NCBI GenBank assembly: GCA_003663295.1
Contig: QMZS01000002.1
Coordinates: 1-37,361, forward strand
Source of the DNA: Candidatus Aenigmatarchaeota archaeon
Lineage (GTDB): Archaea > Aenigmatarchaeota > Aenigmatarchaeia > QMZS01
Direction of reading: 5' to 3'
Length of the DNA: 37,361 bases
Shown: piece by piece, positions 2,515 to 32,830 of the stretch
How positions within the stretch are numbered: the stretch's first letter is position 1
Layout of the letters: each line of letters starts with the position of its first letter
Program-made: the position numbers and the translations under genes
Notes under the pieces: model-generated
What the model was told of the DNA's origin: nothing
Databases searched by the model: none
The model's input: the letters and a program-made list of their open reading frames with translations, nothing else

Positions 2515-2643
2515 GCGGGGGTAGCCAAGTGGTCAAAGGCGCAGGGCTTAGGACTCTGTCTGTTAGTCAGTTCGGGAGTTCGAATAACCTTTATTCATTT
2601 TATCTGTGATGGATTAAAGAGAACGAGTATCTCCCCTCCCGCA
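2515..2643 (+). tRNA. tRNA-Leu(UAG) with a ~45-nt intron inside the T-loop
   Basis: Acceptor GCGGGGG (2515-2521) pairs with CTCCCGC (2636-2642, one G-U); discriminator A at 2643. D-arm GCC/GGC. Anticodon stem CAGGG/CTCTG with loop CTTAGGA, anticodon TAG (2549-2551). Long variable arm TCTGTTAGTCAGTTC (class II). T-stem GGGAG (2574-2578) plus TTCGAAT; its partner CTCCC occurs only at 2631-2635, so ~2586-2630 must be spliced out. No encoded CCA. Confidence 0.8.
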
Positions 2644-2695
2644 CACCTAAAATTAACCAGCAGATGACTTAAATTATTTTATTTGTAAAGTGTTT

Positions 2696-3184
2696 ATGAC
2701 AGAAAACAAAATGAAGGAAATTAAAATTGAGAAAATCGTGCTTAATATAGGCACAGGAGAGCCAGGAGAGAAACTGGAGCACGCAAAAACAATTCTTGAG
2801 AGAATAACCAATAAAAAGCCGGTTTACTGCAAAACCAAGAAAAGAAGCACTTTTGGTGTTGCAAAAGGCAGAGATATAGGTGTTGTTGTGACAATTAGAG
2901 GTAAAGAAACAAAAGAGTTCCTGACAAGGTTTTTTAAGGCAAAAGAAGGAAAATTGAATAAAAGATGCTTTTCAGGAAGAACATTTTCATTTGGAATCTC
3001 TGAATATATTGAAATACCTGGAACAGAATATGACCCTAAAATAGGAATTTTCGGGCTTGATGTGTGCGTAACCTTAAAAAGAGCTGGGGGATTCACAGGC
3101 AATAAAATAGGTAAAAAACACATGATTTCCTCTGAAGAATCTGTTAATTTTATAAAGGATAATTTTGAGATTGAAATTGTTTAA
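2696..3184 (+). CDS. rpl5: 50S ribosomal protein uL5 (L5P)
   Basis: KEIKIEKIVLNIGTGEPGEKLEHAKTILERIT...FGVAKGRDIGVVVTIRG...FSFGISEYIEIPG matches the archaeal L5 pattern. The track ORF starts at GTG 2690; ATG at 2696 is preferred. Confidence 0.9.
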   Translation: MTENKMKEIKIEKIVLNIGTGEPGEKLEHAKTILERITNKKPVYCKTKKRSTFGVAKGRDIGVVVTIRGKETKEFLTRFFKAKEGKLNKRCFSGRTFSFGISEYIEIPGTEYDPKIGIFGLDVCVTLKRAGGFTGNKIGKKHMISSEESVNFIKDNFEIEIV

Positions 3185-3227: not shown

Positions 3228-4322
3228 ATGCTCCTGAAAAGACAAAAATCCGAAATTAATTTAAATCCAATCCAAAGAGGTGGGATTCTGACAAAAGAAG
3301 GCAGAGAAGCTCTCATAGAATTCGGAGATGGCTATGCAACTTATGACCTAAGTCCTGGGCTAGAAATAGAAGATATGCCCATAATCAAAAATTTCATTGA
3401 AAAAGAATTGCCTGAATTTCTTGAATCTGATATCGCAAAATTTACTCTTGGGGCAAGAGAAGGAATATTTAATGTTATGCACTGCATCACAAAACCCGGG
3501 GACACAATAATTGTTGACGGGAATCGGCACTATTCCACAATCACCGCAGCGGAGAGATGCAAGTTAAATATTGTTGAGGTTAAAAATTCAGGGAAACCAG
3601 AATACAAAATAAATATTGAGGATTATGAAAACCTGATTAAAAAACACAAACCATCGATGATTTTACTTACCTATCCTGATGGAAATTATGGCAATATTCC
3701 GGATGCAAAAAAACTCGGAACAATTGCAAAAAAATATGAAGTTCCTTATTTAATTAATGGGGCTTATTCTGTTGGACGGATGCCAATATCAATGAAAAAA
3801 CTCGGGGCTGATTTTATAATTGGTTCATGCCACAAATCAATGGCTTCTTCAGGACCCTTGGGTATTTTAGGAGCAAATAAAAAATGGGAAAAAATACTTT
3901 TTAAAAAATCAGAATTGGTAAATAAACAAATTGAATTTATTGGTTCTGAATCCAGAGGAACTGCGGTAGCAACATTAATTGCTTCATTCCCAAAAGTAAA
4001 AAAAAGAATTGAAAACTGGGATGAAGAAGTCGAAAAAGCAAAATATTTTTCATCTGAAATAGAAAAACTTGGGATAATGCAACTCGGAGAAAAACCTCAT
4101 AACCATGATTTGCTTTTTTTTGAAGCTCCTGTTTTATATGAAATTTCGCAGAAACATAAAAAGAGAGGTTACTTCCTGCATCAGGAACTTAAGAAAAGAG
4201 GCATTTCAGGAATAAAGGCGGGGCTTACAAAAAACTTTAAAATATCCACATATCAACTCACAAAAAAAGAGCTTGATAAAGTTGTGTCTGCTTTTAAAGA
4301 AATTATTGATGAAAATTTATAG
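3228..4322 (+). CDS. SepCysS-like PLP-dependent enzyme (O-phosphoseryl-tRNA:Cys-tRNA synthase family) lacking the conserved catalytic cysteines
   Basis: Family resemblance runs along the full length: INLNPIQRGGILTKEGREALIEFGDGY, TYPDGNYGNIPD, VPYLINGAYSVGRMP, PLP-lysine motif GSCHKSMASSGP, WDEEVEKAKYF, PHNHDLLFFEAPVLYEIS. There is no Cys where the family normally has three (see finding). Confidence 0.7.
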   Translation: MLLKRQKSEINLNPIQRGGILTKEGREALIEFGDGYATYDLSPGLEIEDMPIIKNFIEKELPEFLESDIAKFTLGAREGIFNVMHCITKPGDTIIVDGNRHYSTITAAERCKLNIVEVKNSGKPEYKINIEDYENLIKKHKPSMILLTYPDGNYGNIPDAKKLGTIAKKYEVPYLINGAYSVGRMPISMKKLGADFIIGSCHKSMASSGPLGILGANKKWEKILFKKSELVNKQIEFIGSESRGTAVATLIASFPKVKKRIENWDEEVEKAKYFSSEIEKLGIMQLGEKPHNHDLLFFEAPVLYEISQKHKKRGYFLHQELKKRGISGIKAGLTKNFKISTYQLTKKELDKVVSAFKEIIDENL

Positions 4323-4415: not shown

Positions 4416-6659
4416 ATGCCAAAGACATATACATTTAAAAATGATGTGCTTAAAATAGATTGCATGAATTGCATCTATGGTTCATCCGTGGAAGACTTCC
4501 CAGAATGTATGAGTGAAGTTATAAATGACTTAATGTCTGTAAAAAACGCAAAATCAACAATTCTTGCAAAAGAAAGAGAATATGAATATGGTTTTGAACA
4601 AACTCGAATGCTGCTGGAAATTGCGAAACTCATAGAGAAAATAACGGTAAATAAATGGTTCTCATATAAAAATTTGGTTACAGAAAAATGCGACAGGTGT
4701 GTATCTTATAGAACTGATTTTTTAAACAATCTAATATCACAGAAATTAAGAACTGATCCAATTGGGGCTTATGTAATGTTAATCCGAAGAATCAGGCACA
4801 CAAAAGTGCTTACTGAAAGAACAAAAGGAATATGCCAAGGATGTTATAATCATTATCTAAAAAAAACACTCGGCCCTTTAAAAAAAAGACTTGAAGAAAC
4901 AACACTTATTAAAAAATCCCTGGACTTTTTGCCGGGCTATAAAATTGGAGATAGATCAATATACCGTCAAATTTTTATTCCTTCAGTCAGACCTAATTTT
5001 ACTTACACAAAATATCTGGCAACCCCACCAGACAAAGCCGAAATGGTCGACAGTTATCAGGTTAATGATGCAAAAGTTGAAATTTATAAAGTGCCCGGTG
5101 AAGTCAGAAGGCTGTATCAATTAATTCCTCTCGAATTCGGACTTGAAGAAAGAGAATATGAATTGCTGGATCGAGCAAAAAGATATATGGCGAGCCACAG
5201 ACCTCTTGAAAAAGAAGAATTTGCATCCTCGGAAGTGAGAAAAAATTTCTATAATATTGGTCTGGATATGCTCAGGGATTTGGCGGGTTCCGCAAATATT
5301 TCAGAAGATAGATTAAAAATTATTGCATCCATCCTTGTAAGATATACCGCCGGAATAGGTATTCTTGAGATAATATTATCGGATGATCATGTCCAGGATG
5401 TGTTTGTTAATTCTCCGCCAGGCACCTCCCCGATTTACCTCATCCACAGCAATTATGGTGAATGTTCAACAAATATAGTCCAGACAAAAGAAGATGCGGA
5501 ATTGCTTGCAACAAGACTTAGATTAAGTTCTGGAAGACCTCTTGACGAAGCCAACCCAGTCCTTGATGCTGAAGCAGATGTTCCTGGGGGAAGGGCAAGG
5601 GTTTGTGCCATCATGGAAACTTTATCTCCCGGCGGTCTTGGTTTCGCTCTTAGAAGACACAGAGAAAGACCCTGGACATTCCCTCTTTTCATTTCACAAC
5701 ATATGTTTAATCCTCTTGCCGGAGGATTGTTATGGTTTATCATCGATGGAGGTAGATCAATGCTTATTGGAGGGACCAGAAGTTCTGGAAAATCCTCCTT
5801 GCTTGGGTCAATAATATCACAAATAATGAAAAATAAAAGAATTATTTCAGTTGAAGATACTCTTGAACTTCCTCTAACAAAATTCAGGGAACTTGGATTT
5901 AATGTAACAAGACTAAAATCAAGGTCGGTTATCACAATGGTTGAAACCGAACTTCCAACAGAAGAAGCATTAAGAGTTTCATTAAGGCTTGGAGATTCCT
6001 GTTTGATAATTGGTGAAGTGAGAAGCACAGAAGCATTGGCTCTTTACGAAGCCATGCGTATTGGGGCTATGGCAAATGTTGTTGCAGGAACAATCCACGG
6101 TGACAGCGCCTACGGTTTATTTGACAGGGTTGTGAATGACCTTAATGTTCCGCCAACCAGTTTCAAAGCAACCGACCTTGTAGTGATTAACAATACTCTA
6201 AAAAGCGCTGATGGTTTGCATTCATTTAGAAGAACAATTGAATTCACAGAAATTAGAAAACACTGGAAAAAAGATCCTTCAGAAGAAAAAGGTTTTGTTG
6301 ATTTAATGACTTACAACGCAAAAAAAGATGAACTGGAACCGAGTTCAACTCTGCTCGCGGGTGAAAGCGAAATATTGAATTCCATCGCAAGAAATGTTAA
6401 AGAATGGAAAGGTAATTGGGATGCGGTATGGAACAATATTAATCTGAGAGCAAAAATTCTGGAAACAATTGTGAAACTTTCCCAGGAAGCAAAAAATCCC
6501 GAACTTCTTGAAGCCACCACAATAGTGCAATCAAACTCGCAATTCCATATACTTTCAGAAGATGTGAGGGAAGAAGTAGGATTTATGGACACAGAAGAAA
6601 TTTACAAAAGATGGCTTGTATGGTTTAAACAACACATAAAAGAACTGACAGAAGCTTAA
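4416..6659 (+). CDS. Type IV pilus/archaellum-type secretion ATPase (PilB/ArlI/VirB11 superfamily) with a long N-terminal extension
   Basis: Walker A GGTRSSGKSSLLGSI, Walker B/Asp box SCLIIGEVRSTEA, His box AGTIHGDSA. The N-terminal ~330 aa carries three CxxC pairs (CMNC, CDRC, CQGC). Confidence 0.8.
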   Translation: MPKTYTFKNDVLKIDCMNCIYGSSVEDFPECMSEVINDLMSVKNAKSTILAKEREYEYGFEQTRMLLEIAKLIEKITVNKWFSYKNLVTEKCDRCVSYRTDFLNNLISQKLRTDPIGAYVMLIRRIRHTKVLTERTKGICQGCYNHYLKKTLGPLKKRLEETTLIKKSLDFLPGYKIGDRSIYRQIFIPSVRPNFTYTKYLATPPDKAEMVDSYQVNDAKVEIYKVPGEVRRLYQLIPLEFGLEEREYELLDRAKRYMASHRPLEKEEFASSEVRKNFYNIGLDMLRDLAGSANISEDRLKIIASILVRYTAGIGILEIILSDDHVQDVFVNSPPGTSPIYLIHSNYGECSTNIVQTKEDAELLATRLRLSSGRPLDEANPVLDAEADVPGGRARVCAIMETLSPGGLGFALRRHRERPWTFPLFISQHMFNPLAGGLLWFIIDGGRSMLIGGTRSSGKSSLLGSIISQIMKNKRIISVEDTLELPLTKFRELGFNVTRLKSRSVITMVETELPTEEALRVSLRLGDSCLIIGEVRSTEALALYEAMRIGAMANVVAGTIHGDSAYGLFDRVVNDLNVPPTSFKATDLVVINNTLKSADGLHSFRRTIEFTEIRKHWKKDPSEEKGFVDLMTYNAKKDELEPSSTLLAGESEILNSIARNVKEWKGNWDAVWNNINLRAKILETIVKLSQEAKNPELLEATTIVQSNSQFHILSEDVREEVGFMDTEEIYKRWLVWFKQHIKELTEA

Positions 6660-32556: not shown

Positions 32557-32830
32557 GTGCGGAGCTAGACTGGGCTGTTAGGCGGAGCCTGTAACCCGAA
32601 ATCGTCTTAGCGGGAGTTGAAAACCCTGGAAGGTATTTAAAACGGTAAAAGCCTCTTTGATTTGACTGCGAAGTCCAGCCTTGAAAGGTGGTTTTTATTG
32701 TGAATCCCCCAGATTCGGAAGAAAGCAAGGGTAAGCAGTGGAGATTATGCTTTTGAGTTCACTGGATGGAGAAGAATCAGGGAGTAAACTTTTGCTGTTT
32801 TGTTTATCGACTGGGGGGTGCTCTGCACGC
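32557..32830 (+). ncRNA. ffs: Signal recognition particle RNA (archaeal 7S RNA)
   Basis: 5' GTGCGGAGC (32557-32565) pairs fully with GCTCTGCAC (32820-32828), forming helix 1. Alu-domain-like GGGCTGTTAGGCGGAGCCTGTAACCCGAAA. S-domain helix-8-like CCCCAGATTCGGAAGAAAGCAAGGGTAAGC resembles the conserved ...CCGGAAGGGAGCAACGGTAGG... of archaeal SRP RNAs (from memory). Confidence 0.75.

Follow-up and report, generated by a model that had tools for sequence, protein, structure and literature searches.

A SepCysS homologue without the three active-site cysteines in a Candidatus Aenigmatarchaeota archaeon, and its clade in DPANN archaea and CPR bacteria

Introduction

Can cysteine be formed on its tRNA by an enzyme that lacks the cysteines associated with sulfur delivery? 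The question is raised by a gene for a 364-residue homologue of O-phosphoseryl-tRNA:Cys-tRNA synthase (SepCysS), located in a 37,361-nucleotide stretch of DNA (referred to here as the window) from a Candidatus Aenigmatarchaeota archaeon (assembly GCA_003663295.1, contig QMZS01000002.1, positions 1 to 37,361 of the forward strand). According to the work cited in Mukai et al. 2017 (PMC5424206), the active-site cysteines of canonical SepCysS are both persulfide carriers and ligands of an iron-sulfur (Fe-S) cluster. Which compound donates sulfur to SepCysS in vivo, and whether these cysteines serve a persulfide relay or an Fe-S cluster, is still a matter of debate in the field. An earlier interpretation of the window, made by a model from the letters and their open reading frames (the sequence-only reading), had proposed that the protein resembles SepCysS from end to end but has none of the three catalytic cysteines, and had suggested that it uses a different sulfur donor, makes another product or acts on a free substrate, or is a repurposed paralogue. 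Based on sequence and structure comparisons, we conclude that the gene most likely encodes a functional Sep-tRNA:Cys-tRNA synthase (Sep, O-phosphoserine) that would belong to a derived, Cys-less sub-clade of the clade-I-type enzymes.

Results

Assignment of the protein to the SepCysS family

The open reading frame (ORF) is intact from its ATG to its TAG codon and encodes 364 amino acids (aa) plus the stop. The product scored 484.4 bits against TIGR02539, the NCBIfam equivalog model for SepCysS (cutoff 365.25; protein residues 5-363 on model positions 4-369), and 462 against NF006810 (cutoff 301), and phmmer matched it end to end to the SepCysS proteins of Archaeoglobus fulgidus (2e7i, E=1.5e-122) and Methanocaldococcus jannaschii (3wkr, E=1.9e-107). 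An AlphaFold2 (AF2) model with a mean predicted local distance difference test score (pLDDT) of 93.6 superimposed on 2e7i with template modelling (TM) scores of 0.91/0.96 and a root-mean-square deviation (rmsd) of 1.2 Å, and the top structures in a Foldseek search were 3wks, 5x6b and 2e7i (E about 1e-47, TM 0.90-0.96, rmsd 1.2-2.3). The runner-up fold family, the cysteine desulfurases, followed at an E of about 1e-22, 25 orders of magnitude weaker. These results bear out the end-to-end likeness to SepCysS, and the pyridoxal 5'-phosphate (PLP) lysine motif that had been described as retained, GSCHKSMASSGP, is indeed present at residues 199-210. Membership of another fold-type I aminotransferase family, which had been named as an alternative, is contradicted by the SepCysS structures being clearly the closest.

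Two specific identities were considered and rejected. The best score against a cysteine desulfurase model (IscS/NifS/SufS/CsdA) was 40.8 bits for TIGR01979, for which the cutoff is 475, and the protein has no conserved Cys. For SepSecS, the PF05889 match was confined to residues 100-360 (122 bits), the phmmer match to 2z67 covered 90 residues at E=0.0028, and Ser240/Glu241, not Arg, are found at the site equivalent to Cys247 of the A. fulgidus enzyme.

Relative to the canonical enzymes (A. fulgidus AF0028, 2e7i/2e7j; M. jannaschii MJ1678, 3wkr/5x6b), the structure-aligned identity is about 49% over the full length. The fold, the PLP lysine, the Sep-phosphate triad, the U73 motif and the partnership with SepRS and tRNA-Cys are shared with them; the differences are C39/C42/C247 replaced by Tyr/Ser/Ser, Thr248 replaced by Glu, a one-residue deletion after Gly44, and no SepCysE or SepCysSn. 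No such partner (SepCysE or SepCysSn/SepCysSN) was found upstream of or fused to the window gene, which lies 43 bp downstream of uL5 and has no N-terminal extension. A SepCysE/SepCysSn partnership is not a defining property of clade-I-type SepCysS.

Replacement of the three cysteines

In HMMER and MAFFT alignments, C39, C42 and C247 of the A. fulgidus enzyme (C64, C67 and C272 in M. jannaschii) align with Tyr39, Ser42 and Ser240, which confirms that the three catalytic cysteines are missing, no cysteine being placed at any of these positions. The best 120 matches included 97 canonical sequences, of which 96-97 have Cys in each of the three columns, and in a second set of canonical sequences the columns were Cys in 64/64. 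As the columns are Cys in nearly all canonical enzymes, the triple loss is not due to chance or to an alignment artefact, and the same state was seen again in independent assemblies. The only cysteines of the protein are C86, C111 and C201, and these, as well as the two quoted segments, GDGYATYDLSPG (residues 33-44) and FIGSESRGTA, are exactly as the sequence-only reading described them. In addition, Glu46 is found where canonical enzymes have Cys or Asp, the canonical Thr (A. fulgidus Thr248) is replaced by Glu241, and Arg243 is invariant. Each of the three replacement codons is one substitution away from the Cys codon TGT (Table 1).

The cysteine beside the PLP lysine had been suggested as a possible substitute nucleophile. 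Cys201 was present in only 7/23 clade members (of the 120 sequences, 89 have Gly, 22 have Ala and 7 have Cys at position 201), and we therefore rejected this candidate; none of the three cysteines of the query is conserved within the clade. Since the three cysteines are replaced and no conserved Cys compensates for them, the protein, as far as the alignments indicate, is a SepCysS homologue that stands outside the canonical persulfide/Fe-S sulfur-relay class.

Table 1. Coordinates of the SepCysS-family gene, its key residues and other features of the window
Feature	Coordinates	Strand	Basis or remark
ORF of >775 aa	3-2327	-	Runs off the left end; signal-peptide-like N-terminus, probably a large secreted/surface protein
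tRNA-Leu(UAG)	about 2515-2647	+	T-loop interrupted by about 45 nt (range about 41-49) that follow GTTCGAAT (about 2582)
uL5	2690-3184		Directly upstream of SepCysS
SepCysS-family coding sequence, member of the Cys-less clade	3228-4322	+	ORF, TIGR02539, 2e7i match, AF2 model, dN/dS
N-terminal motif GDGYATYDLSPGLE, residues 33-46	3324-3365	+	Alignments; in place of canonical GDGYSVCDFCxGRLD
Tyr39 codon TAT	3342-3344	+	A. fulgidus Cys39 site
Ser42 codon AGT	3351-3353	+	A. fulgidus Cys42 site
Arg77, phosphoserine-phosphate site	3456-3458	+	A. fulgidus Arg79; invariant in clade and canonical enzymes
His101-Tyr102, phosphoserine-phosphate site	3528-3533	+	A. fulgidus His103/Tyr104; invariant
PLP-lysine motif	3822-3857	+	Alignment to A. 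fulgidus and M. jannaschii
Cys201 codon	3828-3830	+	
Lys203 codon	3834-3836	+	Schiff-base lysine
FIGSESRGTA segment, residues 237-246	3936-3965	+	Alignments
Ser240 codon TCT	3945-3947	+	A. fulgidus Cys247 / M. jannaschii Cys272 site
Glu241 codon	3948-3950	+	
Helix-loop-helix region with U73-recognition residues	4164-4223	+	Alignment to M. jannaschii; roles from PMC5688128
FlaI/VirB11/TadA-type secretion ATPase, 747 aa	4416-6659	+	Downstream of SepCysS
Stand-alone tRNA-binding domain protein, 107 aa	7534-7857	+	PF01588, Trbp111/CsaA-like; about 3 kb downstream of SepCysS
Cysteine-rich protein, 634 aa	10170-12074	+	44 cysteines (7%); no Pfam or NCBIfam match
Archaeal signal recognition particle RNA	32558-32827	+	RF01857, 123.8 bits; sole Rfam match in the window

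Retention of catalytic and tRNA-binding residues

Lys203 aligns with K209 of the A. fulgidus and K234 of the M. jannaschii enzyme and was invariant in 120/120 sequences. N177, D195, S200, S204 and H101 were invariant across 131 sequences, and K203, N177, D195, S200 and R243 are the same in the query, the clade and the canonical enzymes. Arg77, His101 and Tyr102 are likewise conserved, and their A. fulgidus counterparts are reported to bind the phosphate of phosphoserine (Fukunaga and Yokoyama 2007). Arg313-Gly314-Tyr315 and Gly332 match Arg345-Gly346-Phe347 and Gly364 of the M. jannaschii enzyme, which recognise U73, the discriminator base in tRNA-Cys, in the SepCysS-tRNA complex of that organism (PMC5688128). 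Judged by these alignments, the substrate-handling half of the enzyme looks untouched.

A Cys-less clade in DPANN archaea and CPR bacteria

From the top matches of a search of 5.8 billion proteins, 23 sequence clusters (P numbers below) were found to share the signature GDGY[SA]xYD[IL][SA]xG-xE plus G[SC]ExRG, and three more were obtained in a second search seeded with the most divergent member, so that the clade consists of at least 26 clusters from DPANN archaea and bacteria of the Candidate Phyla Radiation (CPR). Tyr occupies position 39 in 26/26, and at position 42 all 26 have either Ser or Ala, both positions being Cys in canonical enzymes; position 241 is Glu in 22/23, where canonical enzymes have Thr and never Glu. 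In a neighbour-joining tree the Cys-less sequences formed one clade that is sister to a group of canonical enzymes, which argues that the Cys-less state is derived rather than ancestral. Because the C247-equivalent Cys is kept in only one Altiarchaeota-like sub-branch (P0005-8 and P0018), the third cysteine appears to have been lost at least twice, and later than the first two. Members with no cysteine at all are frequent (12 of the first 23 clusters and 13/26 overall), and the median number of non-catalytic cysteines is 0 in the clade versus 3 in canonical enzymes, in a comparison uncorrected for phylogeny.

The ratio of nonsynonymous to synonymous substitution rates (dN/dS) for the window gene was 0.06-0.10 relative to three orthologues of 88-91% identity (from Aenigmatarchaeota metagenome-assembled genomes (MAGs) and an uncultured archaeon). 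The gene is under strong purifying selection. These values rule out a pseudogene or decaying copy, and with the conservation of the replacement residues themselves they led us to reject the suggestion of a repurposed or decaying paralogue.

One member of this lineage has been noted before. Mukai et al. 2017 in mBio (PMC5424206) described two exceptional SepCysS proteins without persulfide cysteines, one of which, from 'GB archaeon No. 4' (Data Set S1), was found by us to be an 88%-identical orthologue of the window protein (cluster P0002, genomic locus L003) from the Guaymas Basin, a different metagenome and a different species, with the same motifs (GDGYATYDISPG, GSCHKS and FIGSESRG). In that study the Cys-less SepCysS was paired with its own SepRS, and it was given one sentence, without clade, selection or context analysis or an assay (PMC5424206). 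The second exception, from Parcubacteria DG_74_2, was purified as a colourless protein, i.e., one with no Fe-S cluster, converted 95-99% of Sep-tRNACys to Cys-tRNACys with 40 mM Na2S, and was active in E. coli (PMC5424206). This protein (KPJ56533, about 90% identical to P0047) is also of clade-I type and encoded in a SepRS-SepCysS operon; in our neighbour-joining tree it falls outside the Tyr39 clade as an independent lineage, and it lacks two of the three cysteines, Cys39 being kept and Tyr and His occupying the other two positions (CDIWYS..., GHYQKG).

Association of the clade with SepRS and tRNA-Cys

The MAG of a close relative, GCA_030631635.1, carries the orthologous SepCysS gene beside uL5 on one contig and a SepRS gene on another, the latter belonging to a cluster that shares about 92% identity with the 'GB archaeon No. 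4' SepRS. Two zero-Cys members from CPR bacteria, P0012 and P0019, are encoded in compact tRNA-Cys(GCA)-SepRS-SepCysS operons (loci L006/7 and L009/10) in which SepRS starts a few bases past tRNA-Cys and SepCysS either overlaps the SepRS stop by 8 bp (L006, P0012) or follows it after a 7-bp gap (L009). In the deepest sub-branch, P0422 (L024/L025), the order is SepCysS-SepRS-tRNA-Cys, and in a further CPR locus (L011) tRNA-Cys lies about 860 bp upstream of SepCysS. The adjacent SepRS proteins of L009 and L024 meet the threshold of TIGR00470, the sepS equivalog model. The clade, which spans DPANN archaea and CPR bacteria, therefore travels with SepRS and tRNA-Cys.

No sulfur-carrier gene was common to the five context types (the window, two CPR types, the Altiarchaeota type and L024). 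Small ORFs downstream of SepCysS in the CPR loci were considered as carriers and discarded, being mutually unrelated; one ends in Gly-Gly and looks like a membrane protein. A special depletion of cysteine in the partner SepRS was also discounted, as SepRS proteins generally contain few cysteines (2 at the median, over a length of about 510 aa).

Several other features of these loci were recorded. In five loci of Aenigmatarchaeota relatives (L015, L016, L017, L020 and L021), the divergent partner of SepRS is invariably a 347-aa FAD protein of the geranylgeranyl-reductase family (TIGR02032, 142 bits, below the cutoff), and the gene after SepRS encodes a very large protein of secreted or S8-peptidase-like type. 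In the Altiarchaeota-like loci that keep the third cysteine (L012, L013, L022 and L023), the neighbourhood of SepCysS is conserved. ThrRS lies divergently upstream, and the downstream side begins with a PAC2 protein, which is followed, in L012 and L013 after an intervening 280-aa ORF, by a HAD hydrolase resembling phosphoserine phosphatase (TIGR01491, 138 bits, cutoff 152) and then by an LL-diaminopimelate aminotransferase. Directly upstream of the SepCysS-SepRS-tRNA-Cys cluster of the deepest sub-branch (L024 1079-2506, L025 1068-2495) is a gene for a 475-aa serine-dehydratase-alpha protein (PF03313) with an N-terminal GCTEPIA motif, which is reminiscent of archaeal L-cysteine desulfidase. 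Its position suggests a possible tie of cysteine breakdown or sulfide to the pathway in this one lineage.

Genomic surroundings of the window gene

The closest genomic relatives of the window are Candidatus Aenigmatarchaeota (DPANN) MAGs, and its content is archaeal, including both topoisomerase VI subunits (A and B), SecY, an archaeal-type ProRS, a B12-dependent ribonucleotide reductase, Spt5, uL14 and uL15 (other features are listed in Table 1). Cysteine makes up about 1.7% of the residues encoded by the window ORFs, and the host thus uses it normally. No SepRS or CysRS was found in the window or in the orthologous loci L001-L003, and there was no rhodanese, TusA, ThiS, IscS or SufS among the window genes. 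The FlaI/VirB11-like ATPase has an N-terminal extension of about 290 residues, with several cysteines at its start, that matches no family model.

The sequence-only reading had placed the gene beside uL5 and a tRNA gene. The uL5 gene does lie immediately upstream, and the tRNA gene exists as well, but its identity is tRNA-Leu(UAG), not tRNA-Cys, which removes it as a link to the pathway and makes it irrelevant to that question. This tRNA was missed by ARAGORN and by Rfam (at the gathering threshold and at E<=1), neither of which reported any tRNA in the window, and was found by manual reading and in-silico intron removal; the relative L002 has an intron-less tRNA-Leu(UAG) at the orthologous place (5272-5356). 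Some relatives have a 112-aa ORF with no Pfam match between uL5 and SepCysS (L018 9644-9982, L019 808-1146 and L003 about 4625-4945), with just 39% mutual identity between the copies of close relatives. It was rejected as a SepCysSn-like partner because it matches no family and is not conserved, the window, L001 and L002 all lacking it.

Discussion

The protein very probably makes Cys-tRNACys, as judged from its family assignment, its retained residues and the gene associations of its relatives. Our favoured reading, to which we assign a probability of roughly 0.6, is that it would be a working SepCysS in which sulfur is inserted without an enzyme persulfide or Fe-S cluster, by direct attack of free hydrosulfide on PLP-bound dehydroalanyl-tRNA. 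In such a reaction, SepRS encoded elsewhere in the genome would charge tRNA-Cys with O-phosphoserine, and the acceptor end of Sep-tRNA-Cys would be bound via the conserved U73-recognition motif. The amino group of Sep would then form an external aldimine with the PLP carried on Lys203, with the phosphate resting on the conserved Arg77, His101 and Tyr102, and beta-elimination of the phosphate would yield the PLP-bound dehydroalanyl-tRNA, as in the established mechanism of SepCysS and SepSecS. Given the loss of the cysteines, sulfur would be added with neither an enzyme-bound persulfide nor a cluster, the nucleophile most likely being free hydrosulfide from the sulfidic, anoxic habitat, by analogy with CysK and O-phosphoserine sulfhydrylase and with the Na2S precedent. 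Tyr39 and Glu241 may serve in the pocket as hydrogen-bond donor and general base. The Cys-tRNA-Cys formed would supply translation and, once deacylated, contribute to the pool of free cysteine.

The chemistry has a functional parallel. O-acetylserine and O-phosphoserine sulfhydrylases convert a PLP aminoacrylate to cysteine with free HS- (or a thiocarboxylate) and without an enzyme persulfide. The likeness of CysK, CysM and archaeal O-phosphoserine sulfhydrylase (OPSS) is one of function only, as these are fold-type II enzymes that act on free amino acids and have no homology to SepCysS. We regard free hydrosulfide as the most likely donor because no carrier gene is conserved across the five genomic contexts, because the partly Cys-less enzyme of Parcubacteria DG_74_2 works with sulfide, because the habitats of the hosts are sulfidic and anoxic (e.g., sediments of the Guaymas Basin and subsurface groundwater), and because a negatively charged donor such as selenophosphate or thiophosphate would be a poor match for the acidic Glu241. 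Of the options raised by the sequence-only reading, a different sulfur donor or route is thus the best supported, apart from the idea that Cys201 provides it.

Several points weigh against direct use of hydrosulfide. Single cysteine mutants of the canonical M. jannaschii SepCysS reportedly lose activity in vivo (Liu et al. 2012), and so the loss of these residues is presumably not trivially tolerated. The assayed Parcubacteria DG_74_2 enzyme represents a separate lineage that, unlike the Tyr39 clade, keeps Cys39, and its assay in vitro used 40 mM sulfide (PMC5424206), which is far above physiological levels. The active site lies at a dimer interface, the roles given to Tyr39 and Glu241 are putative, and the apparent monophyly of the clade comes from a single method, neighbour joining. 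Finally, there is no SepRS, CysRS or tRNA-Cys in the window, and the linkage to the pathway is drawn from relatives.

The strongest competing explanation, which we nevertheless consider unlikely, retains the substrate and product and has the sulfur delivered by a separate carrier, i.e., a protein persulfide, a ThiS/MoaD/CysO-like thiocarboxylate or a thiophosphate-like small molecule. Parallels exist in Mycobacterium tuberculosis CysM, which uses O-phosphoserine and CysO-thiocarboxylate, and in SepSecS, which uses selenophosphate. Free sulfide is not considered the in vivo donor of canonical SepCysS, and the desulfidase-like gene that precedes SepCysS-SepRS-tRNA-Cys in L024 is a further point in favour of a carrier. 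Archaeal SepSecS (Araiso et al. 2008, PMC2275076), which like SepCysS is a PLP enzyme that acts on tRNA-bound phosphoserine via a dehydroalanyl intermediate, shows that an active site with no Cys can take an activated phosphate-type donor, since it catalyses the analogous reaction with its selenophosphate held by arginines. However, one of these arginines occupies the C247-equivalent position (PMC2275076), where the window protein has Ser240 and the acidic Glu241, an arrangement that would be unfavourable to a negatively charged donor of the phosphate type, and the M. maripaludis SepSecS (2z67) is otherwise distant (phmmer E=0.003) and tetrameric. Also opposing a carrier are the failure to find a candidate gene common to the five context types, the lack of rhodanese, TusA, ThiS, IscS and SufS genes in the window, and the minimal nature of CPR and DPANN genomes.

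That the product has changed, by addition of selenium, water or another thiol after the elimination, or that free O-phosphoserine is the substrate, seems improbable to us. The loss of all sulfur-handling cysteines and the remodelling of the pocket (Tyr39, Glu241) could be read in this way, but the genes of clade members are closely packed in operons together with tRNA-Cys(GCA) and genuine SepRS genes. The enzyme retains both the Sep-phosphate triad and the U73-recognition motif and has no SepSecS-typical Arg at the Ser240/Glu241 site, and none of the loci examined showed any Sec machinery. Moreover, the window proteins have ordinary numbers of Cys codons, including the B12-dependent ribonucleotide reductase, an enzyme in which catalytic cysteines are essential. 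The other-product and free-substrate options of the sequence-only reading accordingly found no support. Least probable of all is a catalytically dead or regulatory paralogue (e.g., a Sep-tRNA-binding protein or scaffold) beside a canonical SepCysS or CysRS elsewhere in the genome: some archaea do have two SepCysS copies (Mukai et al. 2017, PMC5424206) and other Aenigmatarchaeota have canonical, Cys-rich SepCysS (P0061, P0063, P0071 and P0076), but strong purifying selection keeps all the PLP- and substrate-binding residues invariant, for which a scaffold would have no need. In the CPR operons, moreover, it is the Cys-less gene that accompanies SepRS and tRNA-Cys, and the Parcubacteria enzyme, itself partly Cys-less, has full activity (PMC5424206).

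Returning to direct addition of hydrosulfide, we give about even odds to a broader proposal, namely that the Tyr39/Glu241 clade represents a second, mechanistically distinct route to tRNA-dependent cysteine, through a SepCysS with no cysteine and no Fe-S cluster at all, that arose by ordered loss and spread by transfer. The distribution of residues suggests that Cys39 and Cys42 disappeared before Cys247, whose loss followed in two or more sub-lineages, a stepwise loss which would imply that the three cysteines act as one cluster-ligand unit that is dispensable as a whole. The clade may have spread horizontally between DPANN and CPR as a compact tRNA-Cys/SepRS/SepCysS module.

The core observation is already known, as the Söll laboratory flagged the lineage in 2017 and showed a partly Cys-less relative to be active. 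The searchable literature, including follow-up surveys from 2022, contained nothing further on Cys-less forms of SepCysS, and as far as it shows, the size and monophyly of the clade, its DPANN-CPR distribution, its conserved hallmark residues Tyr39 and Glu241, the stepwise sequence in which the cysteines were lost, the frequent zero-Cys state, the strong purifying selection and the operon evidence are new. The value of the finding is tempered accordingly, and the clade offers a good, inexpensive case for biochemical testing and not a discovery.

A strongly conserved natural clade that lacks the three cysteines, and often has no cysteine at all, is nonetheless ready-made for such a test. If its members do make Cys-tRNA from sulfide alone, the cysteine and cluster apparatus of SepCysS would be an add-on and not a chemical necessity, and oxygen-tolerant, cluster-free tools for converting Sep to Cys in genetic-code engineering would become available. 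It would also explain the cysteine supply of genome-reduced CPR and DPANN organisms in sulfidic habitats, and would mean that the machinery that inserts cysteine into proteins need not itself contain cysteine.

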